Assembly (NCBI GenBank): GCA_964187785.1
Contig: OZ076411.1
Coordinates: 76,198,001 to 76,262,000 of the forward strand
Direction: 5' to 3'
DNA from: Amphiscolops sp. MND2022
Taxonomy: Eukaryota
DNA length: 64,000 nt
Shown: piece after piece, positions 2,374 to 51,294 of the stretch
Layout: the number at the start of each line of letters is the position of its first letter
Position numbering within the stretch: the stretch's first letter is position 1
Translations under genes and position numbers: made by a program
The notes under the pieces: generated by a model
Told to the model about the DNA's origin: nothing
The model's database searches: none
Seen by the model: only the letters and a program-made list of their open reading frames with translations

Positions 2374-4460
2374 TCACTCAGCCTCAAAAGTGAAATCGAC
2401 GATGCAAAAAATTAATACAGCACTCCATTGGTTCACTGGTTGACCCAAAGCTCCTAGTGCCTTCAGGTGCTCATTGGTGATTTCGTGTAGTTTCCTGAGA
2501 CCAGAACCGGATTCTACTTTCATGGACGACTGAGACCAGATGGCTTGTAAATGAGCATGCACTATTCTTCGTGTGTTCTCGTATATGTCTTTCAGTAGCT
2601 GCCACGCAATGGGGTAGTTGGCATCTGTGATTCTAAGTGAGCTGAATATTTTCGCTGCATCACCTTTTATGCTGGCCTTCAGGTAATTTAGTCTCTCAGA
2701 TTCCGAAAAAAAGACTGCTTGAGCCCACTAGGGGGAGCAGAAATTAACTATCAACGAGGAGCGAGGATCGCATGGAAACAAAGTGCTTGACGAAATTCTC
2801 GGCAAGAAGTGGGATCTCCTCCAAACCAGGCCGCATGCTGAGAAGTTTTTCAATCATGTCCTCTTGGGGGTGCGGTTCAAAGTAAAATCCAGTCTCGCTT
2901 TTGAAGCCCTCAAAATTCAAGTTCAAGGACACAGAGGTTGCTACGAGGATTATGAAAACTATCGCGAGTTAATCTCGAAAAACACAAAAACCTCCTTGGC
3001 AGCTTAATAACTGGTGCATTTTCAATCATTCGTTTCTGTTTTATGCTGTAAATGCTGGGTACTTTGTATTTCGTTAGATGATATTAACATCTACTTTTAC
3101 CAAAAAAAATTCGTGGAATTAGATAGCTCTTGATTCGATTATTGTCGTTTTATTACTTCAACTACTTCTGAGGAAAAATGTTGAGTTAGTAGAGAGTGAA
3201 ATTTACAATGACCAAGAGGAGGCAATGGAATTCTTGAACAAATTTGAAGGACGAAGTGTATAAGAATTACTATTTATCTACATGTTTTCCGCAGAAGTTG
3301 TATATCAAAAACCTAATACTAGTGTAAGGAATCCTTATAACGGGGTTATATTTTAACAATCCTCGTGAATCTTGTAATGTTTATTGTTTACACGTATACA
3401 AAATCCTTCGTTTTCACCAATTATTAAAAATCCTCATGTACAACGAATTATTAGAACATTGAAATAGGTAATGTTAATACAAAAAATAATACATTAGGGG
3501 CCAGTGAAAACTCTCTTATAAAGCTTTCGAGTATTGTTAATAAATTTTTGAGGTTTTTGGAAGTTGTGTCTTGTAATGCTGCTGCTTGGAAGAGGTCAAT
3601 ACCAGTTACCCAATTGGTATAGGCACCTGTGAAAATTGGCATTTGGAGCTTTGGCAGACGCATGCGTCCTGTAGTCGTCGGACTTGGAGAGGTTGATGCG
3701 GCTGCTGTAAGTCCCGCTTCAACTGGGTCTTGATAATGTCAATTAGGGCACTGAGTTGAGATATGGCGATGTTCAACCTAGTCTCGTAGTCTGAACATAC
3801 CTCCTGTTCTTGTGACTGCTTGGCATTGTCTTCAATTTTGAGCTCGATCTCTGCGTCCCACCTTGGGTTGTATGGCACTTGTTCTGCAATGTAGAAAACA
3901 GCGCCTCTGCTTCGCATAGCTTCTGACTGGAAACTGCGTCAAGTGCTACGAGGTCATCAACTCTGGTCTCGTATTTTGTGAAAGCTGCCTTGTGTCCTGC
4001 CCTCAAACGCATTAGTTTGCGAACATCTTCTTCCCAGTTGTTTGTTTCTGCTTCAACCATATCCGGGTCGCTGGACCAAATGTTCGCGCCGATGTCCCTC
4101 TGTTGGATGCGAGAGTGCTTCACTTGTAGCTTGTGAAGTCGACTCGCCTTCGATTCTAAAATGGCAAACTAAAAGACTGCGATTTTCTGCTGAAGAGACT
4201 CGAACAAAACTGTGTGAAAGCATTGAAAGCTTTATTAGACGAAAAGATTGTTGCTTTTTGCCATTCAAGACAGTTCACAGCTCTCATTATGGGGGGTGAG
4301 GTTTTGAGAACGAAGCACAATGTTTAGAAATCATGTACCAGTCAATCGACACAAATGACACAGGATTATGCAATCAGAGTTATGTAATTGCATGCCTGTT
4401 GGCTAACAAATATGTTGTGTGCATTTGCAACACACACGGTTCAATTTGGTTCACACAACA
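2374..4460 (-). mobile_element. 5' remnant of a BEL/Pao LTR retrotransposon (LTR, PBS, gag), interrupted at ~2729-3580
   Basis: Minus strand: MVEAETNNWEEDVRKLMRLRAGHKAAFTK, RLPKLQMPIFTGAYTNW..DLFQAA, then after the insertion ERLNYLKASIKGDAAKIFSSL..NYPIAWQLL..LRKLHE..QPVNQWSAVLI (DUF1759-type gag). PBS at 4061-4078; LTR ends ...CGAACA at 4081; far LTR end (~4460) is tentative. Confidence 0.85.
4061..4078 (-). promoter_or_regulatory. Primer-binding site of BEL/Pao element
   Basis: TGGTCCAGCGACCCGGAT lies 2 nt after an ...ACA LTR end and directly before the gag ATG; resembles the common BEL PBS TGGTCCTTCGAGCCGGAT. Confidence 0.75.
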
Positions 4461-4659
4461 AATAGGCAACGTAAAAATTTATTGGGGCGAAAGCAACGAT
4501 AATGGGGTTAGGAAAGGTCAACAAAACAAGGATAACATTCAGCACGTAATGACTGTCAACTTTTATGAACTCAAAAATTCGTTTTCAACTAAAATTTACA
4601 AATCATAGTTCCAACCAAAAATATAAACGAAGAAAGAGTAAAATTGTGCTGTTTTAGGG

Positions 4660-5452
4660 ATGAATGAGCATGAGGCTGCATTGGGACTGACAACGGACCT
4701 GGAGTTGGGGAGCCTTCCCTTGACTCGGGTGAAGGCAGGTGGTGTAAGGGACTTCTTGAGGCAACGGAATATCCCATTGTTGCACGTGCCAATCCTCTGC
4801 TGCGTTGCACCAACGGAGCAGCGAGGAGGGCTGCAGTTTGCTTCCTGAGTGAGAAGCAGCTTCTGTCAACCTTCAAGGGTCCACGGATGAAGGACGTTGC
4901 TTTTGACGGTCTTCTAGAGGCTCCCTGGCGATACGAGGCCCTTTACCCAGACCCGCTAGGAGATTAATATGTGGATGTTGTCCAGGATATTAGCAGTTAC
5001 TTGCTCCTTGCTCCTTGCTCCTTGCAAGTGGTGGTAGGGCATGGAGTGGTTGGCATACCGACACCAACCCTGGAGGAAGCGTTACCAGTCAGTTGGAGAG
5101 GGAAAGGAAGTTGTGGTTCTTCACCACTCGCACACGTGAGGTGAAGATCCTCCGCAGAAAAGGCGTTGTACCTCCAGCAGATAGGCCTCGTTCCCTGCCC
5201 AGTAAGCTCCGGGATGATTTGCAGCAGTTCCGGGAGCACATAGTGTATTGCATCTAAGAGCCCCCCGATGTGGTCCTGTTCTCCCCATTGACCACGCACT
5301 GTGTGCTGACGGGACCAGGGCCAGCTGCTTTGATGACCACTACACTGAATGTCGAGGAGTCTGAGGAGGAAGGGCTTCAGTGCCAGGGCGCAGTGTCAGC
5401 CTCAAGGAGTGAGACGCGTCGTAAGGGTGCCATGTTCACGAAAGCAAAGTAG
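4660..5452 (+). pseudogene. JmjC-like (cupin, Fe(II)/2-oxoglutarate dioxygenase) pseudogene, copy 1
   Basis: Joined frames read SYLLLASGGRAWSGW-HTD-TNPGGSVTSQLERERKLWFF ... YCI*EPPDVVLFSPLTT-H-CVLTG, i.e. HxD...H triad with JmjC-type RKLW and xEPGD strands; two stops, frameshifts, and a TTGCTCC x3 expansion. Confidence 0.7.
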
Positions 5453-5639
5453 GGGAAAAGACGGTCCAGGATTCTTTGGGTGAGGATCGCTTTGAAACAA
5501 AATAATATACAAAATACAAATACCCACTTCTTCAAAAGTATTCCACTTGATGTCAATTTAACTCGGACGGTTCTTAGTCAACAAACGAAGTCAAAATCTT
5601 TTCACTTTTTTGGGGAACCATTTTGAAATTTTTTCCAGA

Positions 5640-6809
5640 TTCTTATAGGCGACACATGGCTTCGAACCACGTCAAGCAAGATACGGAAGTCGACAAGTAG
5701 CTGTAAGCACCGAAAGTGGCGCTGAATTGGCCTCACATGTTTTCAGTTGCTTTATAGAAAGCCCCCAGCCCAAACGAGACGTAATTTTGAAAATTAACTT
5801 ACAAAACGCTTTCAATTCGAGAAACCAAAAATTCATGCTACAGAAAGATTTGAAGCACCCTGGGTTTATAAGTACTCACACTCGGCGTACAGTCAGTCAA
5901 GTTTTCTTTTTCACGGTCATTCAGTAATCAAATCTTGTGAAGGGAGCCAGCAAAGAGATCCTGAGACTCCAGTTTTATTTTCGAACCATTTTGTTGAGAG
6001 GAAAACGCGCTGGGACTCAAAAGTAAACCCACGAAAAGCGAATTTTGTTTGATGACATCACTGAAAAACGACTATCGACAATTTTAGCATCTTTCCACCA
6101 CTGTGCCCCGAGATCAAAACACCAAAGAAAGATGAACTTATGTTTTTGGTTCACCGCTCGGCCCGATATCGCAGGCAGACTTATTGGAAAAGAAAATTAT
6201 TGAAATGGAAAAAGGTAATGGAATTGTTGAATAACTAAACGCGCATTATGATTTTTATTTGTTGAAACATTGCTTCACTCTGCCAAAGTTGTTGTTCTTC
6301 CTGAGAACGTGTACATGTTTTAATCTACCAGCTCTCTTGGAAGCTACTCGGAAAAACAACTAGGAAAGCCCTCTCGATGGAACCCAGAAAAATTGGACAC
6401 AACCTGTCTACGTCAAAATCGCCCAAGATTTGATTTTTGGAATGGGTAAAAAACGTTCGAAAATTTTAAACGCTCATCTAGACCAATTCGGGTCTCAATG
6501 GCTGAACGTCGTTCCTTCCAAGAACTTGGGCTGAATCTTGATGACAAACAGCGTCCGATTTCAATTGGCTAACGTCTCTGAGCCAATATCTGTGTTGCGC
6601 AAACGTGCCACTGTGGTGAAAGAGTTGAACATTCTCTGTAAAATACTGTGTCATTCGCACGATGATCAACGAGTTGGCAGATTTTTGAAGCAACGGATTC
6701 CAATGGCTCTTCAAAATGGCAATACGGGATGTGTTTTAGAAACTGTTCAAAACAATTTATTACATATAGTTTTTCAAACCTCTATATCATTGCAGCTTTT
6801 TTAAAAAAA
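5640..6809 (+). mobile_element. Degenerate CRE-clade (R2-group, restriction-like endonuclease) non-LTR retrotransposon, 5'-truncated
   Basis: Fragments KINLQNAFNS, EGSQQRDP, LFDDI, LLKHCFTLPKLLFFLRT, WLNVVPSKNLGL and terminal FLKQRIPMALQNGN; short A run at ~6803-6809. Confidence 0.75.
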
Positions 6810-26000: not shown

Positions 26001-29000
26001 AGGATGCACGACCGGATGGTGCGGTAAATACCATTCTCGGGGCTGGTCTACTTTAAAATAATCAGTTTTGTCCACTTGAACAATATAGCCTTTCGAGAAA
26101 TCGTCGCTAATTGTTTTCGTGTAACTGGCTTTCAAATCGGCAACTTTTTGAAGACGGCGCTCTAGCGATTTCAGTTGAATAAGTGCAGAAACATAATTGT
26201 TCGGTAAACAACTTTCGTCGTCGGCCCACATCTTACCCACTTGGTATCGGGACCCATCGTGGTATGTTGTTTCATCAAGTATCTTTGTCGCTCTCGCGTC
26301 GGTTGCAGAACGGGAATCCACTTGTTTGTACGCGCCGTACGACTCAATGTCGTACCAGCTTCGGAGTCGGTCCGAGAAAGTACAATCGTGCTCTTTCTGA
26401 GTAACAGCTTTGAAGCATGTCGAAAATAGACCCGTGGTCGACGGAAGGGGACCACTCAGTACCCAGCCCAACGGTAAACGGACGGCAACTGGGGTATTTC
26501 GGCGGTCGGATTCGAAATACTCCAGTGGGCGGAAAGCGTGGAAAACGTCCTGACCAAGAATCATTTTCACATCTGTGTAGCTGTACTTCCTAAGAGCGAT
26601 TGGTTCTAAGTGTGGATAGCGAGTCTTCAAATCATCTACGTCAATCACATCATTTCCAATAGTCAATTGATCTCGCACATAAGGTTTAACAGTAAAGGAA
26701 GAGCAAGAGCCACCCGAATGAACCGGTGTCAACTTGAACTCGACCATTTGAGTGTCAACAACCTTGTTGGAGTTAATTCCGTGTACAGTCAGTTTAGTCG
26801 GAGTGCCGCGCACGTCAAATTTGTCAGCTAGCTCGGAGGAAATCCAAGAATGGCTACACGCTGGGTCGCACAAAACTAAGACTTTTGCAGATTTCTCAGA
26901 AGTTTGCACTTCTACTTCCGTTATTTGTTATAATCCTTTCACATCAGAGATGGAAGGGAGGCATGAGGTGACTTCGTCTTTCTTTTGGATCGCTGTCGTT
27001 ACGCTACAAGTAGTTGCTTCACTATTGCCCGCTTTCCCAGATTCAGATTTTCTCGGGACAATCTTCTCTGCACCATATAGCAAAGTGTTGTGCGTACTTC
27101 CATCTTTGGTGCATTTGCGTGGCTGGGGGCAATTGCGGAAAGAGTGTTGTCCATTAAAGCATGAGAAACAAAGTTTGTTCTCGGCAACAACTTTCGCTCG
27201 TTCTGTTGGAGTCTTCTTTCTGAACACTTGACATCGCCACAACGGATGCTTATCTTTGCAAACTACACAATTAACCAATTAACTTGGAATTTCTGGGTTG
27301 ACGGCTTGGTTGCGAAGGTATTTTAGTGGAATTTGTTGTTGCAGCGAACACTTTAGAATTGGTCTTGGTTTTCGTTACGTTTCCGGTTGGAGTTTCTTCA
27401 ACTTTTGGTTTTCCTGAGGAAGCTTTCATCCTCTCGTGAGCTTCGGTTTTGTCCTTCAGCCAATCATTGAAGTCAATCAGAGTCGGTCGGCTCAAATCTC
27501 GCTTCACCGTATACATTGACCACCCTTCTTTCAAGTTCGGGGGAAGCTTTTGAACCGCTTGACCGAGCAATGAAGCACTCGAAAGATCTTGAACGTAGTT
27601 CAGAGATCGGAAAACACCAACCAAGGAGCAAATTGTAGCTGCATAACTTATGATGCTTTCGCTGTTATGCATTTTCACTGGAGGAACATTCGCTAATTTG
27701 TCCAAGTAGGCACTGACCACAGTCTGTGGTTGGCCAAATTTTCGTTCAAGAGTCTTCAGTGCGTCCTTGTACATTGTCCCACAGTACGCAAACTCAGCAA
27801 TTGCTGTTTTGGCTTTTCCAGTAACAAGTGTTTTCAAGTAAGTGAGTTTCACGTCGTCTGTAAGTGAAGAAGAATCAATGGCACTCTTGAACTGGCCGAA
27901 CCATTCATGCCATTGAAGAGGGTCGCCATTAAACTGTGCCAGTTTCCACTCAGGAAGATGGTCTTTCTTCGTCGAACTCAAAAGCTGTGCAAGGTCTTGC
28001 AATGTGAAGCTATTTACAGACGGTTGTGGCAAAGTAAACGAACTAGCAGGTACAAAAGGAGGGGCAGTAACACTGGGAAACGTTTTTACAGTTTGAGGTA
28101 CACCACAGTTTGTTGTCGATGTTACCACAGCAGTCGGCTGCACGTAGTAAACAGTTCCTCCATTCGTTATTGGGAAAACTTGTGCTGTAGATAAGACACT
28201 ATTGTTGGATGGATTGACTGTGGGTAAGCTGGTAGCGGGGGGTGGTACTACAGAGGTGGTGACTGCTGATTGTTGCAAGGATTTGGAATCCGGAAAACTC
28301 CAGGCAGACAAGTTAGGTAAAATGTGATTTACTGGAAGTGTGACTATCGGATTAGGTCGAGGCTGAGCTATTGTTGGTGCTGAAGTGATACTTACTGAAG
28401 GACAAGGATGTTGCAAAGTGCTAGCATTGTTCAAAAATAAACCAGTAGCAGCGAAGTTAGTAGCAGTTAAGTTAGTTTGACCGGGGAAACGCGGAAGCTG
28501 GCCAGGTAAACTAGCAAACGTGTTGTTAGGGTGGTTCAAAGACTCAGTTGTTGTAAGCGACAGTGGAGTCGTACCTGTGGTGTTTTCCGTTTGGGGCGGA
28601 ACATTATTTTGCACCGTAACAAATGTAGGCGCTGATACACTAGTGTTTTCAATTGATGGAGATGCAGCTAAGGCCAATGGTTGCGTACCAACGATCTGTT
28701 CCTGATTCGATTCAACAATGGGTGCTTCAGGGGCACGTTCATTGGTAGCAGATATCAAAGTGGGAGAATTATTAACCCAATTGTTAACTCGGGTTGACTG
28801 ATGTTCGTGGCTCTCCTCACTCAAAAGTGATAGCGTCTCCTGGAATTCTTCATTTGTCGCCGACAGATCATCTTGAAGTTCTAATTGAATCAGTGTCGCC
28901 TCAGCCAGTTTTTTGCGGTTCTCTTCCTGCAAGGCGACTCTAAGTGCAAGTTCTTCCTTGAGACGCTCTTGTTCTTGCTGCATTCGTTTGATTTCAAGAT

Positions 29001-29507
29001 CTTGCTTTTGCTGAGTCAGTCGGAGTGTAGCTTCATTTTGCTTCTCAATTTCTTCACGCCTTTGTTTTGCAAGGAGTAGCTCTTTCTGCCGTTGACTTGA
29101 CGTCTTTGATCGAAGAGAGCTTGAAACTTTACTAGACTTTGTCTTGTTCGTCGATAGAACTATTGAAGTTTGCGAAGCGTTGTCAGTTTGCAGACATTTC
29201 TCCAGATAATTGCGAGCTTTCGTCAGTATTTCATCATTTCTGACAATAACGTCGTTTAACCACTTTTCCAAGTCTGGCTTCACTGACTCTGGGTTGGTTG
29301 ATTTGTTGGCTAAGTCTAGGAGTTGTTCGTTTTTTGCAAAGGTTTTAGTCATAGCTTCCTCACACGAGGTGATTAATCGATCAACGCGAACACGTCGTTC
29401 GGCATTTCCAACGGCGTCATTGAGTTTTTTTGACGTTGTTGAGCTCCGCTTTGGCTTTAGCGCGGCTATCATGCAACTTGGCGACTTTCTCTTGCATCCT
29501 ATCAGCC
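23023..29507 (-). pseudogene. BEL/Pao gag-pol polyprotein with about four lesions
   Basis: Likely start MADRMQEKV at 29507; LPEWKLAQFNGDPLQWHEW, knuckle CVVCKDKHPLWRC/CFSCFNGQHSFRNC, VLCDPACSHSW, YLPHHPV, VSADIEGMF, NFYMDDNL, LHVFGDSSQDA, VPKLELQAA, TGIDYFGP, WSDNGTNF, APHHGGVWER. Lesions: extra A ~29430, insertion ~27275, TAA at ~26928, 1-nt deletion ~23845. Confidence 0.95.
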
Positions 29508-29949
29508 ATTGAATGTTTTCCTAACTTTTTGGATCAATGTAGTGTGTTATTAGGACACGAATTGTAGTGTTTCCAGCACTAAATTATGTTCAAAACAGCA
29601 GAATCACTTACAGAACATCAACCAGACAACTAAATCCGGACACAATACTGAAAGTTAACTATGCGGTTGTCTATTAATGAAAATTCCACAGTGACAGATC
29701 AAAAGAAGATACTACAAAATTTACAAGTACAAAATCTACGAGTTTAAAATGTTGCGGAGTATGTTGCGTTGGAAAGACGGTTAATTTATTTGTTTTGGTT
29801 CAAAAATAGGCACTAAGGAACTACGAGGACGGTATAAGACAAGAGTAATGAAGAACACGCAGTTATGGTATTGAAACGGTCGTTTTGAACGTCAACCGGA
29901 CAGTCAAGTCCGGACACAGTCCAAAACTTGGAGGAAAGTTGTTGCGACT

Positions 29950-35113: not shown

Positions 35114-35645
35114 TATAGGAGCATAGCTGATAACGTTAAACAATAATTCCGACACGCGTTTTCATGTTGGTGAATTCAATTGGATTTCAATTTTCAGCTA
35201 TTCAGATTGCAGTATAAACAAATATTCTGCTCGCTCCCATGTTTCCTATGTTGGTTGGATTTTTTGTCTGCCGCCCGGTCAGGGGGCAACTTATGAAAAA
35301 AGAAGCGTTTTTAAAAAAAAACCCTGATTGATGACGACTGTTGTTCCATGAGTTGTAAATTAGAGTCAATCTAATTTGTTGCGATTTGCAACTTAGAATC
35401 ATTCTAATTAGTTGAATGTTTGAAATAAAATCAATCTAATTTGCTGAAAAGTGGGAGAGCAAGTTAAAGTTTTAACTCGACTGAATTTTACTAAAGTGAC
35501 AGAAACTGTGGGAAATGAGAACAAAGTATGAACAAATTACGAATTCAATGACGTACACATTTTTGCATGTGAGTGTTAGTCAGCATGAATAGTTTGAGAT
35601 TCGAATGTTTAGCTTTCATCTGCTTGCCTCAGTTGTGCTTCAACA
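34766..35645. repeat. ~880-bp composite repeat; second copy is 43250-43604 + 44167-44410 + 50711-50995
   Basis: About 90-95% identical once the insertions in copy 2 are removed; both copies end GTGCTTCAACA. Confidence 0.9.
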
Positions 35646-35697
35646 TACCGCCCGCCTTGAAGGATCGGTAGATTCTTTAATGATTTCAGATTTTGCA

Positions 35698-36906
35698 ATG
35701 AACCCAAAAGAAACGGTGGACGCGGGTGCGGATGTTAGTGACAGCGAGGAGGGGCCTTAAACAGTCCCAGAATAGAGTCGTGTTGAGGAGGTGTTCGCTG
35801 AAGTGGAGCAGCGTGGAGGACTGGCGTGGCGACAGACGGGAATTCTTCCACTGTTGGTGGTCTCCATCTTCAGCTGGGGGAACAAATTTCCAACTGTCCC
35901 AACGGTGGTTCGAGGCGCTGCAGCAGACAGTCTCTGTGATTTGGCTGCCAGAGTCAAGTCACTTTGGAATAAGGGTGCTTGTGCGTACTCGGACTTTTTG
36001 CAGTCAGCAGGAGCCACTGTTACAAGTCGCAGCAAGGGGAGGGACAACCGGGGTTTTGAGGGCAGCAGAACGTGCTCGTTTGTGTTGCCTGACTCGGCTG
36101 TCAATTGTCTTGCTCCGGACTACATCAAAGTTGGATCCAAGGCACTTTTAGCAGCGAAGGGGCCTTGGATATTATGTGGACATATTGAACCAGGTGGGGG
36201 AGAGAGTATTGCCAAGCTATCGTCCGGCCGCAAGCTGTGGATCATAGCTACCAATATTGGCTCTTCCAGATTCCTTATGTCCATTCAAAGCTTTGATCAT
36301 TTTTATCAGCTCTTGATGGGTGCAAAGTCAGAACGTTCGAAAACGCATAAGCATAACAAAAGAAACATTCGTGGTTTGCGGTTTCACTTAGCTGAAGAAG
36401 GTGACGTGTTAATTCAGCCTGCTTTTTATGCGCATTGTGTTCTAACGGGTCGAGCTTATGCTGCTGATGGTTCTACTCGATTGGCACTTGTGCATGGTTG
36501 GGAGGGACTGGATTTGCGCCACACTAGGCGAGCTAGCAGTGTTTTTAACAGTGTCAGTACGGGTTGCGGAAGAGGCTATATCTCACAGTGGTTGAAGAGG
36601 TACGGAAAGGATAAGTTGTTGTCACTTCTGACTGTCAGAGACTGGAAGCTTGCCCTGGCAGCCTGGCGTAAGTTTCAAGTTCAAGTCAGTCTGAACCCAT
36701 CAATTTCTCTTTCCCGTACTGAGACGTCTGTTAGATCTTTCCTCTCTCGGAGTGATGTACTGGAACACTTTGAGGCCTTCGTTAACTATGGTTTCAATTT
36801 GGAAGCTCACCTTCCAGTTCCCAAATTGGAGCTGTCAGCGAAGTCCCGAAGAAAGGAAAATCGCTTGCTGGCTAACTTGAAAAAGGGGATCAGAGTTTAC
36901 GTCTGA
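35698..36906 (+). pseudogene. JmjC-like dioxygenase, copy 2 (371-codon open frame; two stops near the upstream ATG)
   Basis: KALLAAKGPWILCG-HIE-PGGGESIAKLSSGRKLWII ... LAEEGDVLIQPAFYA-H-CVLTG; ATG at 35698 is in frame but followed by TAA (~35758) and TAG (~35773); no introns evident. Confidence 0.7.
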
Positions 36907-37817
36907 TGAAGAATTGGATCTTCCTCTTGCTGCAGTTGTAGAGTACATGCCTCGTGACGAACTTTGAAATTTTGTTACTTCCATATGAACAGAATAATTG
37001 AATGAATTAGTCAGTTTATTTTTCAACCATTTGAATGAGTCACGAGTGCATGTATGAATTTCCATAAGAAGTGAGTTGAACTGAAATTCCATACTGATGA
37101 ATTGATAATGAACCAGTTGGACCGCAAGCCACGTCTGCTAGATTATGGGGATTGAGAGGTTTGAAATAACTATAATTTCGAGAATGATAATGAAACCAAA
37201 AGAGATCGTCTGCTACTGATAAATATAAATGCGAACATCCACATTTCGGTAGGTTGTATAAGTAAAATATCCAATATTCCATTTGATGATAAATAAATTT
37301 CATTGGTCGGTGCCTCTGAGCTTGATCTGCCGAAGCCCCGCCAAAGCCTGCATAGCAGCAACAAACCATGAAACAGCTGGTGATTGTAGGAAATCAGAAA
37401 GTACCAGAAAAGACCAAATGTAAACAGGTGAAACGAAATAAAGTGAATAATTGTCAATTCTTATGTAAATTATTGGGGTGAACGTGAAGTCAAACGGCCA
37501 TAACTTTAGATATAAGTCGAAATCGAAAATTCGGCATCCTAGAGCTTTTCACAGAGATGCCAGGGCGCCATTTAGAGGGGTTCATATATCCGTAAATTGT
37601 ACCAACAAAAGTCGGGACCGAGAAAACATCAAGTATTTCGGTATTCCGAAATAGATGTAAGACACATCAAATTGCTATAACTTCAAATAGAGACCAAAAT
37701 CAAAAATTCAGCTCCCAAGACATTTCCACAGAGATACTAGAGCGTCATTTAAGGTGGTCCATGCGTCTGTATAATGTAGCAACAAAATTCGGGACCGAAA
37801 AAGTTGTCTGAGTAACA

Positions 37818-40800
37818 TGCCCCGATTTTGCTCTGATATACTTGAATTCTCTTAAGTTAGAACTGTTGCATCTCTGACCAAATCAGGACCTGATATAGCT
37901 TGCGGGGGATCTATGGGGAGCTTTCTAAGCTTGACTACTGCCCGCATCAGGGTTCCACTGGTTGTTCTGACTTTTGCAACACGATTTATCTCATCATTAC
38001 CGGAGTAAAGATCTATTACACGAGCCATTTTCCAGTGCAAAGGAAGTTGATTGTCCTCAGCAATGAAAACTAAATCACCTTTTGCGAATTCTGGACCGCT
38101 TGTGAGCCATCGTTTTCGTATTTGTAGCGTATCCAAGTAATCTTGATGCCAAGACTTCCAGAATGGAGATTTCAGTTTTTCCAGAAGCTTCAATCTGACA
38201 TTGAGATGTAAGTTTTCATCACTTTCACTTGCGGTCAGCGAATGTAAATCGTTCATCCCTCGTCCCAGTATAAAGTGAGCTGGAGTGAGCGGCTGTAAAT
38301 CATTGGGGTCAGCAGACATTGCAGTGAGAGGTCTAGAATTTGGAATTCCTTCGATTTGAAAAACGAAAGTGTTCAATTCATCATGAGTCAAGATTTGCGT
38401 ACCCACACAACGCCTCAAGTGTCGTTTCATTGATTTATTAGCTGCTTCCCAGAGTCCTCCGAAGTGTGGAGCTCTAGAAGGAATAGTAATCCATTCCATT
38501 CCACGACTATTGATGTAATTTTTGATTGAATTTTCATTTGTGTCTTTACTGAAAAGACTTTGAACTTTCGCAATGTTATTTCTGGCTCCAATGAAATTGG
38601 TACCATTGTCACTGAAAATCTTTTCTGGTGGTCCACGCCTTGCAACGAATCGTTTCAAAACTGCGATGCAAGAATCTTTTGTCAAACCAGTGTCTAATTC
38701 TATGTGAACAGCCTTTGTGGAAAAGCAAACGAAAACTGCAATCTATATCTTGTTGTCTGGCTTGGTGATAATAGGTCCTACCAAATCAATACTAACATTA
38801 ACGAAAGGTTTGATAGGCGTAACTCTCTCGGAAGGTAAGTCAGCCATAAGTTGAGCTAGAATTCCACTAGAGAATCGACTACATTTGACACAATTCCGGA
38901 TAAATTTGTTGGCAACAGTTTTACCTCGAATTATCCAGTATTATGATCTACTGGAGTTGAGCGTTAGCTGCCCCCCGCCATGAGGTGGTAGCTTCATGAA
39001 ATTGTCGTAAAATCAGTACTGGCAGATGAGAATCAGGGTGAAAGACATGAGGAAATTTTTAATACTCGGCAAAAGAACTTTTTGATAATCTACTACCAAC
39101 GCGGATTGTACCAGTATCTCCATAAAAAAAAAGACATAAGTTGAGAAGCTTGCCTTTTCTGCTTACTTTCTACCCAGCTTTCAAACGAAAAAAAAATCTT
39201 CTGTGAAGATTTCTTTTTGGTGAAGTGAAATGATGAGAAACTTCGCCTTTGCGCGTCTTGAGGGACTAAGACTCAAATGACTATTGACCTTTTGAAGTAG
39301 GTCAATAGCTAAATGCACGTTTGCTGCTACACGAATGACTTTGCTGAGAGTGCTGTTTCGTTTAATGTCAAATAGAGGTTCCACGTCTTGAGCGGCAGTG
39401 ACTGTAGTAGTGTTGAATTTCTGCTTTTGTTCTGTTTGTACAATTTTTCGCATTTCATCATCGATTTTTGAAGATAATTGAGGCCAAGTGTCCTCTTGAT
39501 GCAAGAACCAATTGGGACCGAACCACCAGAAGTTATTCGTGAGTAAGTCTTGGACCATCATTCCTCTTGATGCACAGTCTTCCGGATTCAAGTTGGACTT
39601 GACGTGATACCAATTTTCTCGAAGAAGAATTTGCTGAATTTCGGACACTCTATTGGCGACGAAACAGGTCCATGTTCGTGGTAGCTGCGAAAGCCATTGG
39701 AGAACTATCGTGGAATCAGTCCATCCATAGATAGTTGGGCTTGGTAGATTTGTGAGTGCAAAGACTTCCTTGATTTTGACAAGTAGCTTGATTCCAAGAT
39801 AGGCATCACAAAGTTCCAATCGAGGCAAAGAGACTGTTTTGATGGGTGCAACCCGTGTCTTGCTTGCGACGAGTTTCGAGACAATATGCCCGTCAATATC
39901 TGTCATCCGTGCGTAGATGACAGCGGCATATGCAATTTCAGAGGCATCTGTAAACGAATGAAGTTGAACATTCGCGATTTTCCCTTGAGGAGAGATACAT
40001 CGCTGTAGCTTGAGTTCTGCCAAATTGGGCAATTAATCTTTTATTTGTTTCCATTCATTCTGAATTTCTTTAGATACAAGTTGGTCCCATTCAAAACCTT
40101 GTACCCAGAGTTTTTGAAGTAAGACCTTAAATCTGATGACAATGGGAGAAAGCCACCCAACTGGATCGAACAACTTCGCTGTTTCTGAAAGTAACTGTCG
40201 TTTTGTCACGTTTCCTTCAATTGTTAAATTTGAGTAGAGACTGAAGTGATCTAAGTTGGGTTTCTGTGACACACCCAGCGTTTTTATTTGGTAATTGTTA
40301 TCCATGAATTTATCTTGGTTGGTGCTTTCTCGTAGATTTTCTGGCAAAGACAAGGTGATTTCATGATGACTATAAGCCCACTTCCGTAGCTCAGATCCAT
40401 AATTGCTCAAAACTGCGCAAATTTCATCTACTTTTGTTTTTGCATCTTCAATTGAATCGGTACCAGATAAATAGTCATCAACATAGAAATCGTTTTTTAT
40501 TGATTGAGCGTTATCTTTGTCTTTACACAGATTGGCGACTTCTACAACACTTCGAGTTGAATGAAATGCCGAGGAAGCAATTCCATAGGTAACACGAGTC
40601 TTTCGAAACTGCTTGATGAAGTCTGTGTTTGAATCCCACCATAAAAGTCTGTGAAAAACTTTTGCAGCCTGTTCTAATGCAATTTGTCGGTACATTTTTG
40701 CGATATCTCCCGATAGAGCAACTTTATGCAACCGAAAACGAATAAGAATTGAAAACAAATCTTGTTATACTGTTGGTCCTATCATGAGAGAACCATTGAG

Positions 40801-43250
40801 TGAATTGCCAATACTGGATTTGGCAGATCCGTCAAATACCACACGCAACTTTGTGGTTGTTGAATCCTCCTTGTGAACACATTGATGTGGCAGGAAGTTT
40901 AATTGATGATCAGGTTTTACAATTTCATTGTCAGGAACAGGTTCAAGATGATTGAGATTGATGAATTCGTGATTAAAATCGGTGTATTTTTTTAAGATTT
41001 GGCTTTGAATTTAGACGTTTTTCAAGATTTAGAAAACGACATTTCGCTTGAGTAAAAGTATCTCCCAATGGAGAACTGTCAGGTTTGAAAGGCATACCAA
41101 CATGAAATCTGTTATCTTCGATGTAGGTAGTTTCCTTGAAATGCTTCTCACAAGCAATTTCTTCATCACTGTACCTTTTTGCATCAGGGACTTCCTCAAG
41201 CTCCCAAAATTGTTTCAGGTTGAAGGAGTTGGTGATACATAGTGAAGTGGTGACGACATTTGATTGATGGTCTCTTGTAACACCAGATGCAGTCCAGCCA
41301 AATATGGTGTTTCTGAAATGAAGACCATTGTCTTCTTGAAATTTTCCGTCAAGGAAGATTTGCTCTGCAATAACAGAGTCCAAGATCATTTCCACTTTTC
41401 TGGGTTTATTGAATTCAGGGTCTGCTAAATCCACTGACCTTAAATGGAAACATTTGGCAATACTGAATTCGCGTTCAGGTAGTACTTGGGTAAGGCTGGG
41501 TAAGACATATGCATTGACTGTAATGGCACTATGACCAGAACTTGGTTTCAATCGCAAACTAACACTACCGGAACGGTAAGTTTTGGAAACATTTCGAATT
41601 CCGTTGATGGTAAGTTTTTGTTTATGACATTTCAAATTCATCCGCTGCACTGCGGACTCTGAGATCAAACTGATCTGTGATCCGGTGTCGATCATGGCTC
41701 GACACATGGTGATTTTTGAAGAATCACTTTCAACGGGAACCATTGCAGTAGGAACGATGCCAGAGGCAATTCCAGCAGTCGCCTGGTTTGTGGTAAATGA
41801 ACCAGAAACAGCTCCTTCTGGTGCATCAGGTAAGTGTAACAACGAGATGTGTTTTGAATGGCATGTTTTGCAAGTATGCTTTGACTTGCATTCCTAAGTG
41901 CTGTGACAAAAGTTCAGACAATTAAAGCATAAATTCGACGTCCAAACGAGATTTTTGCGGTCCTTAGGACTCATGTTAGTGAATTTCTTGCAAGAATAAG
42001 TTCTATGATTTTCCGAACAACAAGGACACTTTTCAACAATAGCCTTGTAGTTTTGAGTAGGTTGAGATTTCTCTTGAGAATTACTTTTAAGATGTGGACA
42101 TTCTGAAGCCTTGGGAACTGATTTCGTGGCTGATTCAAGAGCTTGAGCTCTTCTGCCAATAAACTCTCGTAACTGCGTCAGGGTTTGTGGTTTGGTACCA
42201 GGGTAGTCGTTTTCCCAAAGAGCCCTCGAAGCTTGATCCAACCTTTCTGCAATCATTCGAACACCAATGAAGTCTTCTAAATTGTCTCCGAGTTCTAGAG
42301 CCTTGATCGCCATCAAATTTTCTTCGAAAGTGACAAACAATTTGCGTAACTCAGATGTCGAATTGCCCGTCATTGACTTCAAATCGAAGATAACATCTAA
42401 ATGACTGTTAAGAATCAATCTAGGATTGTTATAGCCGTCAACAAGCGACTTCAAAGCATTTGGATGATTCGAGCTTGATAACGGCAAGTGAGCAACTAAT
42501 TGAAGAACTTCGTTGATAAGTGAGGTTTTCAGATAATTGAATTTTTGGATTACTGGAATGCTGGGGTTATTATCAACTGAGGCCATAAACGGAGTGTACG
42601 CCTTTGATCTAATTCATTAGGTCTAATGGAATTAAATCAAACTTTCAGATCTAATTTAGGTCCAACTTTAGGTCTAACTTTCAGATCTAATTTTATCTAA
42701 AATACTTAGTCTAACCCCTTTATGATCTAATATGTGTTCTGAAAGCGAAAATATAATGTGGGGCATGTGCGATGTATGCACGCTCGCCCTCACCGTCGCA
42801 AAGATCAGCTCCACTACGATCGCTCCGCGATCTCCGTTCCCGCTAGGTCTTTGCTCCTGTTCGACCTCGCTTAGCAAGATGGGAATATAGGCGGCCCCAA
42901 GGGGCCGCGGGGAACTAGAGGAATTGGGGACATATCCGAGGCACGTTTTATACTTCATATCACTTTTTAGTTTTAGATCCTCATTGACTTATTGTTTTTC
43001 TCAAATTAGATCAACTTAGAAGAGATTTTTAGACCTGATTATTTAGATCAATTTATTTAGATCTCAGTTTTGCTTCCTCTCTTAGATCTATTTCATTAGA
43101 CCTGATTCCACGCACCTGCCATAAACTGCTCATAGAACGGAACCCACTTCTTGTATTCACCATTGAATTTCGGCAGGTCGAATTTGGGCATCTTGATAAG
43201 GCTGCTGTGACTAATGGATGTGGCGTTTGTTGGTTCTGGAAGGGGTGCTG
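37818..43250 (-). mobile_element. Degenerate BEL/Pao gag-pol, 5'-truncated by the composite repeat
   Basis: MPKFDLPKFNGEYKKW, QKFNYLK, CPCCSENH, AMIDTGSQISLI, GDIAKMYRQI, FYVDDYL, LHSFTDASEIAYAA, LPRLELC, FSDNGTNF, APHFGGLWEAA, LTPAHF; PPT-like AAATCGGGGCA before TGTTAC at 37817. Confidence 0.94.
42591..43117. mobile_element. Non-autonomous DNA transposon (9-bp TSD, MULE/Merlin-like) inserted in BEL gag
   Basis: TSD GCCATAAAC at 42582-42590 and 43118-43126; removal restores gag ...FYEQFMASVDNNP...; weak TIRs; many TAG(A/G)TCTAA subterminal repeats. Confidence 0.85.
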
Positions 43251-43604
43251 GCCATGCTTCAATGTTGGTCCTTGGCATGAGAGCGGAGCGATCGAATCAC
43301 ACAACAAATATGCCAAAAATATTTCGTTTGTTGTTGTTTCCTAAAGATTTCGGTAAAAATTGAATTCAGTTTTGTTCTGAATAAGTTGTTTTTAGCCATT
43401 GTTGCTTTAGTTAGAATGGACTTGGTTTAATTTTGTGGTCATTTGGCATAAAATTCTGTAGCCAATTGACCCGACGAATAATTTAAGCCAAATGTCTTAA
43501 AGCCAAGTGACTTGTGACCTGGCTCCCTCCGCCAAGTAGCAACATTGAGGTTTGGGTATAAGGATTGTCGCTTCGCTCCTGCATTTAGGGCACTAGGGGT
43601 ATAA

Positions 43605-44991: not shown

Positions 44992-47900
44992 TGTTAGAGA
45001 TCGATGAAGGTCAAAGGACCATTAAAGGTCAACTATCTCAGACTATACCAGACTGAACTAATTGAGTATATTTTTGTTGTTCGTAAACATGTACCTGTTG
45101 TTTTATCTTCACTTGACTGAATCACTTTATCAACTCACAACACAAAATAAAGTATTGACAATAACCACTCTTCACCAATCTTCCGACAACCCAGCTACGA
45201 CCAAAAGGAGCCCAGGCCCTAATAGGTTATGGACCCAGCAATTTGGTGAGTTTGCCTTTTCCTTAAAAAAAACCTTTTTCTGCTAACTTTGACTATGCTC
45301 GTCTGATCTTATTTTTCGCTCTCCATTTTTCCTTTTTGCGTCTCGGATATCCACAACTTTTGCTATTTGTGCCGTCCGTTACCGCCTTTCGCTTTCGCTA
45401 ACTTTGTAGCTTATCTTCGTGGGAATCCCTGTTTTGCTGCCCTCATTTTTGTTTCAGTTACTTCTTTCTGCCTGTTTCGGGCTTTTGTTGGAGTTTGTGA
45501 GGGATGGATCGACCTTTGCAGTATCTCCAGTTCTCTGGCAAGGAAGAAGATTTCGCTGTGTGGCAGGTGCGATTCGAGGGGTTCTGTTTCACGAAGAAGC
45601 TGCTGAACGTGCTGAATGGAACAGATGCTGGCACGAATGACAAGAAGTACGAAATTTGGGCGTACTTGGTACAGTGTCTTGACAGCCGCAGTATCCTGAT
45701 GCTGACGAACGACTGCAAGGGTGATGGTCCGAAGGCATGGCAACTACTGCGGGACCACTTCAACAGCACCGAAACACCGAGGTTGATGAACCTATTGGAG
45801 AAGTTCACAACCCTGCGTTTGGAGCCCACGGAGAGCATGGTTGACTACCTGACTCGAGCGGAGTAGGTGAGAAAGCAGTTGGAGCTCGCTGGTGAGAAAG
45901 TTTCTGAAAACATGTTAACTTCGATAGTTCTTAAGGGTTTGCCTTCCGAATATGACTATTTCAAAACTGTGCACGATTTTTCGAAAGATCAGGCGTCTTT
46001 TGCGGAAGTAAAGAAAGTATTAAAAAATTTCGAAAGTTCTCGTAACCTACAAACTGCGACAGCTAGCAATGAAAATGTTGCCTTGTTATCCAAAGGAACT
46101 GTTGCGAAAAGTTCCGCGCGTAAACCTGAAAAGTTCAATGAAAAGTGTAGGCGTTGCGGTAAAAGTGGACATGAACAAGCCACTTGTAGAGTATCCCAGT
46201 GTAACTTTTGAAGGCGTTTTGGCCATGAAGAGAATAAATGTTTCAAGAAAAACCCTCTTTTGAACCCTAAGTCAAGTGCTGAGACAGGAGAGTCAAACCT
46301 AGCTGAGGACTTAGTTTTCTTTTGCGATGGTAGTGAGACTGCACTCACTAGCCAAAAATGCGAGGTGAAAGAGCACACTTTGGTCATCGACTCTGGTGCT
46401 TCCTCGCATATGTTTTTTGACCGTTCCCCGTTCTTCGACTTTAGCGAAGAAACACAACGCAAAGTAAAAAATGCGAATGGGACTTTTTCGCAAGTTGAGG
46501 GTGTTGGAAAAGTTTCTCTTTTACTTTTGGACAAAGAAGGGATCGAACGCTGTGTGACATTTTCCGACTGTCTTTTTCTTCCTGATCATTCTCATAACTT
46601 GATCAGTGTTAGCAAGTTGAGACAAAACGGGGCTCAAGTGAATTTCGGAAAATCTCTGAGCATTTTTGTCAATGAAAGAGCAACTAATCCCTTTGAAGAG
46701 CACGCTAATCTTTACGTTTTGAAAGGAAAGACATTTGATTTTTGCTCTTTTTCCGGCGAAAACGAAAAAGCGGTGTTGTGGCATCATCGCCTTGGTCACA
46801 ACAATTTCAAAAATGTGAAACGTTTGGCTCATCATGTTTCGGGGATGAGCTTGAAACACAGTGCTTTTGACAAACTTTGTTGTTGTGAAGTTTGCAAAAT
46901 TTCTAAGTCACGACGGCAACCAGTATCGCGAAAAATGGAGACACGAAAATCTTCAAAACTTGATCTCGTCTTCACTGACATTTTGGGACCGATGCCAACT
47001 ACTTCGCTTGGTGGCAATCGATACGCTATTACTTTTAGCTTCAGCTACGGACAGCTACAGCAGGTACTCAGCGGTATATTTCCTCAAATCGAAAGAGGAG
47101 TGCCTAGATAAATTCAAAGTTTTTTGTGCGCAAGTGGGAACGCCCAGAGCATTCCGTTCTGATAATGGGAAAGAGTACATTTCCAAGTCTTTTCGAAGTT
47201 TTTGTATATCAAACCGAATCAAACGTGAGCATACTGCCCCTTATTCGCCTCATCAAAATGGCGTGAGTGAACGTCGCTGGCGAACAACAGTCGAAATGGC
47301 TCGCTGCATGCTAAAAACAGCAAAACTCGGCAATGAATTTTGGGTTCGGGCCTTACACACTGCTTTCTACATTTCAAATCGTTGCCTCACAGTTAGTTTA
47401 CCAAATGGTAAAACGCCCTTCGAAATGTTTTTTGGTAAAAAACCAGATCTTTCCAATATGAAAGTTTTTGGTTGTACTGCTTTCAAACACATTGAAACGC
47501 ATCAAGACAAACTTTCCGATAAAGCCACCAAAGAAGTTTTTGTTGGTTATTCTGAGGATTCCGAAGCATACATTCTGTACAATCCTTATTCTAAAAAGAC
47601 TTCGTTTTCTCGCAACGTCTCCTTTGATGAGACTTCTTTTGACTTTTTTGCTGCGCACCCAAGTCAAAACATCCGAGCATTTGTAACCAAAAAACCGGCA
47701 CCGAAACAAGTTTTGACTGAAACACAGAAACATTTTTGCGAAATGTCTTCAGTTCCTATTTTACCGACTGAAACATTGAATGATTTCGAAACTGAAACAA
47801 CTCCTAACCCCGTTGATGTTGTTTCATCTGAAAACATTGATGCCAATGAAAATAGTGCTTTTTTGCGGTCTCGAAGTGGGAGATATATCAAACCGCCTGC

Positions 47901-50238
47901 GTATCTAGACGACTACGTTCTTTTAACGGATGACGGCGTTGAGAATCTAACTTATCGTGAAGCAATGAAGTCATCGCTTAAAAGCGAATGGATCGAAGCT
48001 ACTCGAAAGGAGTACGATGCGCTCATTGAGAACAAAACCTGGGTGCTTTCTCCGCTTCCCCCGGGCCGAAAAGCAATTGGAAGCCGGTGGGTTTTTAAAA
48101 TTAGGCGACACGACGACGGAACTATTGAAAAATTCAAGGCTCGTTTCGTAGCCCAATGGTTTTCGCAAGTTTTTGGGAACGATTACGATGAAACGTTTGC
48201 GCCTACTGCCAAACTTTGTTCCTTGAGGATTTGTTTTGCGCTCGCTGCTTCTTGGTCGACTTTTGTTTTTCAGTTAGACGTCCGTTCAGCCTTCCTCAAT
48301 ACGAACTTGAGTGATGAAATTTATATAGAACAACCAGAAGGCTTCGCGCAAGCGGGGGCTAATGGTGAAACACTTTATTGCAAGCTTCAAAAATGCCTTT
48401 ATGGTTTAAAGCAAGCAGGGAGGGAATGGAACAAAACTTTAACCCAGTGGTTTTTGAAGAACGAATTTGTACAGTCTGCCAAGGATCATTGTCTTTTTCG
48501 TTGCGATGGGACTAATGGTTCCCAACTTTTTGTACTAGTTTGGGTCGACGACATTTTGTACTTTTCAAACAACGACAAAATGCTGCATGATTTCAAGGCG
48601 TAACTCAGCGATGCATTCAGCATCGATGATCGTGGGAAAATGACTTGGTTTTTCGGATGCAATGTTGAACAGTCACGCGGTCGCATTTCTCTTAGTCAGC
48701 GGTCATATATAAAGGACATTTTGCGCAAAAGTCATATGTCTGGTTGTAAACCAGTCAGTACTCCAGCTATTCCCCATACGAAACAGTCAAAATCGGACTG
48801 CCCTATCGAAGGTAGTGAAAATTCACTTGATATTTGCGAACAGAAACAATATAGTAGCTTAGTTGGAAACTTAATGTATTTGTCCGTTGTTAGTCGCCCC
48901 GATATTTGCTCTGCTGTCTATAACTTAGCACAATTCGTTTCAAATCCTGGTAAAGCCCATTGGTGTGCATTGAAACACCTTCTCCGTTTTCTCAAGGGCA
49001 CCGAGTCTCTATCTCTTGTGTATAACCGCTCTGAAAATCTCGAACTTTCTGGTTTTTCGGATTCCGATTGGGCCACCGACAAGGACGATCGCAAGTCAAC
49101 TTCGGGTTTTTGCTTCCAACTAAGTCGTTCTGGTAGTGTTGTCTCTTGGGCGTCCAAAAAGCAAGGGTGTGTGGCACTTAGCTCTTGTGAAGCCGAGTAT
49201 GTTTCGTTGGCTTTGGCTGCACATGAAGCAGTCTATTTGCAAGGCTTGCTCACATTCTTCTGCTTGATGACGGTGGACACGCCTGTTCTGTTGTGTGGTG
49301 ACAATCAAGGGGCACTCGCACTGGCCAGCAACCCTGTCGCCCACAAACGTGCTAAACACATAGAAACCCGACACCACTTCATCCGTCAACTGGTTGAGGA
49401 CAAACGCATTCAACTGTCTTATGTCTCCACAAAAAACGGGTGAACGGAAATGGGTCAAAAGAAATGGGTCGAATCGGCCTCCTGTGCCATGGGTCGAATC
49501 TTCACCGTTTCGGAATTGGGTCGAATGGACTTGGGTCGACCTTGGAAAATGCCAAGTTCAAGGGAGACAACATATTGATTTCGACCCAAGTCCATTCGAC
49601 CCAATTCGACCTCAGTCAATTCGACCTAAGTTATTCGACCAAAAGGGTCGACCTAATTCTTTTCGACCTATTTCATTCGACCCATTTCATGCAATCCACA
49701 AAAAACAACTTGGCTGATATCTTCACCAAGAACCTACCCAAGCCTACCTTCAATGAGCTCTCATCGCAACTCTTCGTCATTCAGCCACCCCGATCAACAA
49801 CTTAACCCTTGCCTCCCTCACAACTCAATTATTTTACATTTCTCATTATTGTGTTTATGTTATCACTGGGACTATGACGACTTTCAGCTTCTCTTCAACT
49901 GATGGATAGAGCCATCTCAACCGCTGCCTTGACACGACAGATGGTCAAGCAAAGTGGTTCGCCATCATCAAACAACAACCCTCGGAGTCTCTCATCGAGC
50001 GGGGGTGTTAGAGATCGATGAAAGTCAGAGGACCATTGAAGGTCAACCATCTCAGACTATACCAGACTGAACTAATTTAGTATATTATTGTTGTTTGTAA
50101 ACATGTACCTGTTATTTTATCTTCACTTGACTGAATCACTTTATCAACTCTTAGCACAAAATAAAGTATTGACAATAACCACTCTTCACCAATCTTCCGA
50201 CAACCCAGCTACGACCAGAAGGAGCCCAGGCCCTAATA
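44992..50238 (+). mobile_element. Full-length Ty1/copia element (inactive), 5-bp TSD
   Basis: 233-bp LTRs 44992-45224 and 50006-50238 (about 12 differences); TSD AAAGT; PBS GGTTATGGACCCAGC (45225-45239); PPT GAGCGGGGG; gag knuckle CRRCGKSGH, VIDSGASSHM, LWHHRLGH, FRSDNGKEY, HQNGVSER, YGLKQAG, VWVDDI, GFSDSDWA; several stops and frameshifts. Confidence 0.97.
49438..49697. mobile_element. 260-bp MITE (9-bp TSD) inserted in copia RNase H
   Basis: TSD ACAAAAAAC at 49429-49437 and 49698-49706; removal restores YVSTKNNLADIFTK; imperfect TIR ..GAAATGGGTC; GGGTCGA repeats on the left, TCGACC repeats on the right. Confidence 0.92.
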
Positions 50239-51294
50239 AAAGTGTCCAGAGGCGAGCAACCAGACTCGTACCCGGCATTGATAATCTTAACTACGAAGAC
50301 AGGTTAAAAGAATTGTATCTTCCAACTCTCGAGTACAGAAGACGGCGCGGTAGAATGATTGAGGTATACAAAATACTAAATGAATGTTACGACAGGAAAG
50401 CGACTGAAGGGTTATTCGAATTGAACGAAAGAGAGACCAGAGGTAACCCTTACCAGCTGAAGACAAAGAAACCGAGACTAGCAATTAGAAAGAACATTTT
50501 TGCTCTCGCTGCAGTAGCGGATTGGAATTCATTGCCAGAAACAGTTGTGCGCTGTGACAACGTATACGCTTTTAAAAGAAGTTTAGACAGACACTGGGAA
50601 CACAAAATGTTCAACACCGAGTTCCTTGTGAGAAATGGACTCACATGAAAGGGCTGATCGACAGAGGCTGTGGCCTACAGATCAGAAAAGAACCTGTGAA
50701 CCTGTAAATTAGAGTAAAATCTAATTTGTTGCCATTTGTAAATTAGAATCAATCTAATTAGTTGAATGTTTGAATTAGAATCAATCTAATTTGCTGAAAG
50801 GTGGGAGAGCAAGTTAAAGTTTTAACTCGACTGAATTTTACTAAGGTGACAGAAACTGTGGGAAATGAGAACAAAGTATGAACAAATTACGAAATCAATG
50901 ACGTATACATTTTTGCATGTGAGTGTTAGTCAGCATAAATAGTTTGAGATTTGAATGTTTAGCTTTCATCTGCTTGCTTTAGTTGTGCTTCAACAACGAC
51001 GATCCAATTCTAATGAAAGGTAAAAATATATTCTGCTCCATTCGACCGAGTTTTCTGTGTGGTAATCCTGCAACGAATATTTGGGAAAACATTTTCTGTT
51101 TGGCATTTCAGCTAATTTTAGGAATTTCCCGCCAAAACCCACGTATTTCGACCAATATGGCACCAGATTGGCGAAACTTTGGTCTCCTCTCTTTTTTTGA
51201 GAATTCCAGTCCCGGAACAAATGAAGTTTCGGCCGAGAAACAAATTGTACTTGGATTGTGCTTTCCTCTTCATTTTGATCTTTTCTAGAAAGCA

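Follow-up and report, generated by a model that had tools for sequence, protein, structure and literature searches.

A JmjC-like gene carried antisense by BEL/Pao and Gypsy LTR retrotransposons and a Polinton variant, a candidate anti-silencing cassette of an animal genome

Introduction

Fungal KDZ transposons carry TET/JBP proteins, which modify DNA bases, and the VANC anti-silencing proteins of VANDAL elements are reportedly sequence-specific binders. As is proposed for the gene described here, these are transposon-encoded factors acting on host epigenetic marks, but they belong to DNA transposons and neither is a JmjC protein. The counter-attack of animal transposons on heterochromatin is an open question for which few enzyme examples exist, and in the review PMC6431247 the words 'demethylase' and 'dioxygenase' do not occur. 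Antisense ORFs between pol and the 3′ LTR (aORF-3R) were described in maize Grande (gene23), rice RIRE2 and Silene Retand; they are found in plant and fungal Gypsy elements, they are conserved across copies without an assigned function, and an accessory role from their own promoter was proposed (PMC7264820). According to PMC9289625, Gypsy elements of Phalaenopsis have an AlkB protein (m6A demethylase), with RNA shown as its substrate, fixed as an extra ORF in one recent lineage and read as a means of counter-surveillance. Giant endogenous viral elements of Amoebidium, that is, giant DNA viruses, contain reader-less, multi-exon JmjC-only genes, recognisably KDM4, whose putative activity was proposed to serve escape from heterochromatin (PMC11244446). 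The bdelloid ORF3 (DEDDy exonuclease, GDSL esterase) is one enzyme cassette found in unrelated retroelements of one genome, the abstract of PMC5408684 names no chromatin enzyme among them, and DNA elements take no part.

Here we analyse a 64,000-nucleotide stretch of the Amphiscolops sp. MND2022 genome (the window), in which a sequence-only reading had pointed out two divergent JmjC-like genes. The frame at about 36 kb proved to be real; instead of a dispersed host gene, it represents an accessory gene that a BEL/Pao LTR retrotransposon carries in antisense orientation.

Results

The JmjC-like frame of the window

The JmjC-like gene lies at 35698..36964 on the + strand, antisense to gag-pol, and is broken in the window copy by two stops near its start and a frameshift near 36890. 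An in-frame ATG at 35698 is separated from the open stretch by stops at 35758-60 and 35773-75. The stop-to-stop frame 35776-36903 (+) comprises 376 codons, 371 of which match relatives, and the HIE..H, GRKLW and EEGD..HCVLTG motifs all fall in one + strand frame. The frameshift was recognised relative to the open copies, whose C-terminal 24 residues match window positions 36893-36964 in a different frame. Thus, the motifs named in the sequence-only reading for a 371-codon frame were recovered, while 35698-36906 does not form one open frame. The open copies of this subfamily encode approximately 432 aa. The supposed lack of a reader domain holds true for the window subfamily. Family members have a single frame of ~330-430 aa, with the LTR and pol as its bounds. 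Pfam gave no JmjC match for the window protein, and sequence searches of Pfam and PDB with this protein or its near relatives returned nothing. Its JmjC identity rests on fold and profile evidence.

The BEL/Pao element carrying the gene

The window BEL/Pao element extends over 35339-50995 and is flanked by a 5-bp target duplication (ACGAC at 35334..35338, with the identical 5 bases after the other LTR at 50996-51000). The JmjC-like gene is situated between pol and the 3′ LTR. The 307-bp 3′ LTR (35339..35645, − strand, TG...CA) shares its boundary and direct repeat in 10/10 copies. It is adjoined by a putative polypurine tract (35646..35660), purine-rich on the − strand and identical in 10/10 copies, whose role is assumed from its position; this tract adjoins the start of the JmjC-like frame, the start codon of which is 52 bases from the LTR boundary. 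The interval between cargo and pol contains ~177-bp tandem repeats (37362..37700, approximate bounds) seen as self-matches, and their copy number differs between elements. The gag-pol region (37852..42613, − strand), comprising a gag part, protease, RT, RNase H and integrase, is interrupted by stops and is 93-94% identical to other copies, and a gag-region remnant left after an insertion (43118..43248, − strand) matches the sister copy at 94%. An element with 233-bp direct repeats, recognised by its ORFs and the repeat pair, is inserted in the BEL element at 44992..50238 (+ strand); judging from motifs in its translation, we take it to be of Copia type. The 5′ LTR (50703..50995, − strand) lacks 15 bases and is 94.5% identical to the 3′ LTR, which, together with the nested insertions, marks the window copy as an older, decayed one.

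Pfam analysis of the sister copy identified Peptidase_A17, DUF1759, DUF5641, RVT_1 and rve, assigning the element to BEL/Pao; the gag-pol with DUF1759, Peptidase_A17 and DUF5641 and the order PR-RT-RH-IN are those of BEL/Pao. All ten of the closest copies checked are located in one type of ~8-9.3 kb element with 307-329 bp LTRs (TG...CA). A perfect 5-bp TSD was detected in eight of them, as in the window copy, and the LTR pairs are ≥99% identical in nine and 100% identical in four; the family is a young one. Their gag-pol is on the strand opposite to the JmjC-like frame and is unbroken (1762 codons) in 3/10.

The window includes a second, nearly intact BEL element (23023-29520) without JmjC-like cargo, which is 30% alike in RT-RNase H and is a natural control family. 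Directly after the 5′ LTR of the cargo-bearing element, an intact single-exon gene of an atlastin-type GTPase is found at 51289-52881 (Pfam GBP, E 4e-87), which is possibly a retrocopy.

The second JmjC-like copy of the window (4602..5473, + strand) belongs to an HxD lineage, runs antisense to gag-pol and is disrupted by a frameshift as well as by stops. It lies inside the 1.6-kb 5′ LTR (4081..5654, − strand) of a different BEL/Pao family, recognised by matches to both LTRs of loci L139 and L203, whose LTRs have TG..CA ends. In this lineage an open copy scores 24.4 bits with Pfam JmjC, just over the cut-off of 24. The two window copies are ~30-32% identical over ~105-120 core residues and, as previously proposed, are not recent duplicates. 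Their description as TE-flanked was correct but understated, as both sit inside LTR elements. The copy at 4.6 kb is part of a second BEL group, in which both 1.6-kb LTRs contain a JmjC-like member, and a Gypsy group likewise has one inside both of its 3.4-3.6 kb LTRs.

Family size and distribution among element classes

Searches of the 1.07-Gb genome with five different members gave at least 113, 102, 109, 123 and 124 match rows; in each search the best 103-120 of 364-637 candidates were scored, the lists overlap partly and fragments were counted separately. Judged by these matches, the family occupies several hundred places as a lower bound, and many copies are broken. Among 72 ten-kb stretches with a family member, an opposite-strand pol was detected as BEL in 36, Gypsy in 25 and Polinton PolB in two, a Gypsy pol on the same strand was seen in one, and eight had no pol. 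Most of these stretches were placed downstream of the cargo, and a sense layout with an upstream pol could hide among the eight, five of which are LTR-borne, Gypsy-tail or Polinton-type copies. At 17 of 20 more distant loci the opposite-strand pol was again of BEL type. The antisense position between pol and the 3′ LTR, by which aORF-3R are defined, is kept at 10/10 of the closest and 17/20 of the more distant loci, counts that cover loci found through the cargo and leave elements that lost it uncounted. Distant members are antisense in Gypsy elements as well, several of them between pol and a frame that we interpret as env-like and for which Pfam gave no match.

In a Polinton variant, 3/12 PolB loci examined have a pair of JmjC-like genes that lies between PolB and the terminal repeat, and the other nine had no JmjC-like gene in the 10 kb after PolB. 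This variant, without an identified capsid, has an rve match over the cut-off, weak Pox_A32 and DNA_pol_B matches (E 0.03 and 0.02), visible PolB motifs and a 187-bp terminal repeat. The mobile JmjC family anticipated from the window alone is confirmed: its members are carried by LTR retrotransposons of the BEL/Pao and Gypsy types and by a Polinton variant. The gene may be missing from the majority of BEL, Gypsy and Polinton copies. A further Polinton link, at locus L180, was discarded: there the cargo stands after the tail of a Gypsy pol and before env, and the Polinton genes are a nested insertion.

Several other arrangements were observed. A 16-kb element derived from a Polinton, seen at L192 (2932-7508) and L182 (4552-9097), has its PolB gene between inverted repeats of 4.6 kb that are 99% alike; each repeat holds two JmjC-like genes, the second of the pair with a changed iron motif. 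At L121 (1438-7212) the Gypsy pol beside the cargo terminates with a Macro domain (PF01661, 23.3 bits, cut-off 22), an ADP-ribose binder or eraser, and elements of this type may carry two modification erasers. One Gypsy copy (L065, 2863-5840) has further antisense frames between pol and the JmjC-like gene. Runs of N occur in a few loci (among them L008 at 1105-1365, L065 and L137) and were kept unaltered. At L176 (4008-4904) and L177 (4430-5194), a very distant JmjC gene (HxD, Pfam 30.3 bits) is antisense between pol and an env-like frame of another Gypsy family and may represent a separate capture event. The same genome has a third multi-copy JmjC family (C1:26460262 and similar rows), with 206-codon frames at no fewer than 11 identical-scoring places; a 684-codon frame nearby has a weak BRCT match. 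Against the family profile, the zinc-finger JmjC encoded by a DNA transposon of this genome reached only E 0.6 or worse; kinship was unsupported, and it is a different family.

Predicted fold and active site

AlphaFold2 prediction on 76 aligned members reached a pLDDT of 95.6 and a pTM of 0.91; an earlier fold from 10 sequences was poor (pLDDT 44.6) and was set aside. Foldseek returned JmjC proteins (E 1e-8) with TYW5, FIH and ceKDM7A first, and after VIA re-alignment 50/50 among the matches listed were JmjC proteins (Z 13.1-15.0). Rows 1-20 were KDM2A, KDM7A, PHF8, PHF2 and ceKDM7A (Z 14.0-15.0, rmsd 3.4-3.8), with 231-246 residues aligned over residues 1-348, that is, the whole model. JMJD5, JMJD6, TYW5 and FIH, at Z 13.1-14.0, are tied with much of the KDM2/7 range, and the rmsd of FIH is 7.3-7.7. 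KDM4/5/6 were absent among the 50 matches listed, and KDM5B appeared low in the Foldseek results. Atlas neighbours were unnamed JmjC clusters and JMJD4-like proteins. The family profile had only five matches among 177,635 PDB sequences, all of the KDM7 family (E 0.17-1.8, not significant), and a profile of the most distant lineages had a single, unrelated match in PDB. Identity to any solved JmjC protein is 10-15%. Pfam JmjC (PF02373) had no match in 10/10 near relatives and matched 3/26 distant relatives below the cut-off, while two element-borne members pass it (30.3 and 24.4 bits).

The iron triad is present in 66 of the 73 rows covering all three columns, as H-E-H in 62 and H-D-H in four. 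The middle position is Glu in 69/76 and Asp in 4/76 rows, unlike the HxD motif of KDM2/7. HxE is shared with KDM4/5/6, the only families for which it is given in Table 1 of PMC2938197, all of them demethylases, and no conserved Cys/His cluster of the KDM4/5/6 zinc-site type was seen among the near-invariant columns. The 2-oxoglutarate residues, aligned to PHF8, are T/S in 72/76 and the strand-4 Lys in 72/76 rows. A Thr stands four after the last His in 67/76 rows; according to the same Table 1 (PMC2938197), Thr instead of Asn after the last His is a KDM2/7 mark. Where KDM2/7 have a Tyr in the 2-oxoglutarate site, the family has a small residue, and no PHD, CxxC or F-box domain, the domains fused in KDM2/7, was detected by Pfam. 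Across lineages that are only ~20-25% alike, no columns are kept better than those of the iron and 2-oxoglutarate residues. A basic C-terminal tail is present in 14/16 of the open copies listed, and one LTR-borne Gypsy lineage is without it. The protein is thus predicted to have a JmjC fold in which the iron site is intact and the 2-oxoglutarate contacts, Thr and Lys, are in place. In the VIA re-alignment it comes nearest to KDM2/KDM7, by a narrow margin, and in Foldseek TYW5 and FIH lead. Owing to the missing Asp and reader domains it was filed as a JmjC family separate from KDM2/7, which looks most like lysine demethylases.

Selection, exchange between elements, and origin

Pairs between two young subfamilies gave dN/dS of 0.17-0.24 (3/3, Fisher p at most 4e-12), and pairs of one Gypsy lineage gave 0.19-0.32 (4/4), with 0.36 in another Gypsy lineage. 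Three close within-subfamily pairs (0.55-1.9) and the single pair tested in the LTR-borne BEL lineage (0.70, p 0.2) were not significant, and saturated pairs are uninformative. Twelve of the 15 control frames gave 0.88-1.62, the other three being the mirror frame that shares third positions, and pol pairs gave 0.06-0.17, with 0.65 in one close pair. The JmjC-like frame is under purifying selection.

In the cargo tree of 46 rows, BEL and Gypsy labels need four changes each. BEL monophyly was rejected when the seven BEL rows were held together in a 20-row cargo tree, from which database proteins, near-copies and three long-branch lineages were left out (p-AU 0.0006); in RT-RNase H, the elements of these seven rows are 57-73% alike. 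In the tree, the Polinton copy falls within the retrotransposon copies. As the tree cuts across element classes, the gene has moved between them several times, and the tree, being unrooted, gives neither direction nor donor. When one copy was compared with its sister subfamily (two near-identical copies as partners), dS was 0.20 in the cargo and 0.005 in pol, indicating that swapping continues at short range.

No relative of the family was found in viral contigs (one scan), phage records or two metagenome scans, and viral fold matches were weaker than cellular ones. The 25 database relatives, all of them looked up, and all search matches are unnamed or 'hypothetical'. One of these proteins, P0010, is only 50% identical to its best match in the window's genome, which points to at least one other genome with the family. 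The host has its KDM2/7 in a separate gene that is split, and the exons of this gene match the family profile at E 0.07 or worse.

Discussion

With moderate confidence, we favour a histone methyl-lysine demethylase deployed against the silencing of its carrier elements. An antisense promoter in or beside the LTR would drive the gene, with antisense transcription at the LTR as for Grande gene23 (PMC7264820); the basic C-terminal tail would take the protein to the nucleus, where the enzyme would demethylate histone lysines and thereby loosen the silencing that the host imposes on the elements. KDM7 enzymes remove repressive marks (PMC4233403), and the mark attacked would likely be a repressive one, H3K9, H3K27 or H4K20 methylation, on all of which KDM7 acts. 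A hint that trimethyl marks may be accessible comes from the Glu that stands in for Asp. Lacking a reader or DNA-binding domain, the enzyme would act broadly, not on its own element alone, which would explain why unrelated elements gain by picking the gene up. This broad action leaves open what advantage carriers have over non-carriers, and the absence of any evident means of aiming at the own element, as there is no reader domain, counts against the demethylase reading. A wider proposal is offered tentatively, being somewhat less probable than not in our judgement: that these are undescribed, deeply diverged stand-alone histone demethylases, forming an anti-silencing cassette that BEL/Pao elements, several Gypsy lineages and a Polinton have exchanged within one animal lineage, whose genome they may have helped to make transposon-rich.

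The same cargo gene could instead encode an enzyme whose substrate for hydroxylation or demethylation is a protein other than histone or a tRNA base, in the way of FIH, JMJD5/6 or TYW5, which we consider unlikely but worth serious weight. Possible targets include a small-RNA silencing factor (Piwi-type proteins carry methyl-arginine), a translation factor or wybutosine, which affects frameshifting. TYW5 and FIH indeed head the Foldseek list, JMJD5, JMJD6, TYW5 and FIH are within ~1-2 Z of the best match, a stand-alone, reader-less JmjC is typical of hydroxylases, and wybutosine is tied to retroelement frameshifting in PMC2938197. However, the HxE and HxxxT motifs fit the demethylase clade of Table 1 in that source, the KDM2/7 proteins align across the whole model with about half the rmsd of FIH, and the basic tails suggest a nuclear protein. 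The single unbroken gag-pol frame of three of the ten copies shows that the host BEL family needs no frameshift, which also speaks against this reading. An oxidation of methylated nucleic acid, either m6A on element RNA or 5mC in DNA, seems improbable. A 2-oxoglutarate oxygenase acting on RNA has a precedent in LTR elements (PMC9289625), the basic tail could bind nucleic acid and the lower rows of the viral fold matches include AlkB-like proteins, but the fold and the strand-4 Lys are of JmjC and not of AlkB/TET type (Lys vs Arg, PMC2938197), and the presence of the gene in a DNA-only Polinton variant argues against a role on RNA genomes. A histone target is better supported than nucleic acid.

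Fission-yeast Epe1 is reportedly a JmjC protein with a non-enzymatic role, and non-enzymatic JmjC roles have been reported. A mainly non-catalytic protein that binds or displaces silencing factors, or an antisense RNA as the working part, a role discussed for such transcripts in PMC7264820, nevertheless has only a small chance in our view, a touch above that of nucleic-acid oxidation, because the catalytic residues are the columns best kept across the diverged lineages and the codon-level selection favours a protein. As for a neutral passenger, or a host JmjC family merely lying among transposons, many copies are broken and eight of the 72 stretches lack pol, but this is very improbable given the fixed position in elements with LTRs and TSDs and the purifying selection. 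The case that would have placed the family in a host orthogroup at stable loci fails, as the copies keep a fixed position within elements. The host KDM2/7 gene is separate and split, and the host-gene reading is refuted by the cargo position together with the pol tally.

Under the histone demethylase reading, retrotransposons would bring their own eraser of heterochromatin marks. Antisense extra ORFs of LTR elements have so far stood without an assigned function (PMC7264820). The one described here has an enzyme identity that can be tested, is maintained by selection in recently active elements and has moved between element classes. The family represents JmjC diversity missed by Pfam, and as a natural reader-less enzyme its substrate range could inform the evolution of JmjC specificity. 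A literature search, with thin coverage of subscription journals, Repbase-type reports and supplements, found no JmjC cargo in LTR elements; domain lists in the supplements of screens such as PMC9289625, which lay outside this search, could mention one. Each ingredient has a precedent (PMC7264820, PMC9289625, PMC11244446, PMC5408684), whereas JmjC cargo in LTR retrotransposons was not found in that literature.

The gene resembles aORF-3R in position, orientation and conservation across copies, but it has an enzyme fold, it occurs in BEL/Pao as well as Gypsy elements, and it is also found between pol and env and inside LTRs. As with the Phalaenopsis AlkB, a 2-oxoglutarate oxygenase has been fixed as an extra ORF; here, however, it is of JmjC class, deeply diverged and spread over many families of two superfamilies and a Polinton. 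The Amoebidium genes likewise lack readers and have a putative activity, whereas those described here are single-exon, reside in small retroelements and in most lineages are beyond Pfam detection. The bdelloid ORF3 provides the parallel of one cassette shared by unrelated retroelements in one genome, with other enzymes. KDM2A, KDM7A and PHF8 share with the family the H-I-x-x-G-G and H-x-V-L-T motifs and the Thr and Lys for 2-oxoglutarate, and they are its best whole-model matches; the differences are Glu for Asp, the absence of the cofactor-site Tyr, PHD and CxxC, and an identity of 12-15%, and we claim a likeness in fold and active site, not orthology.
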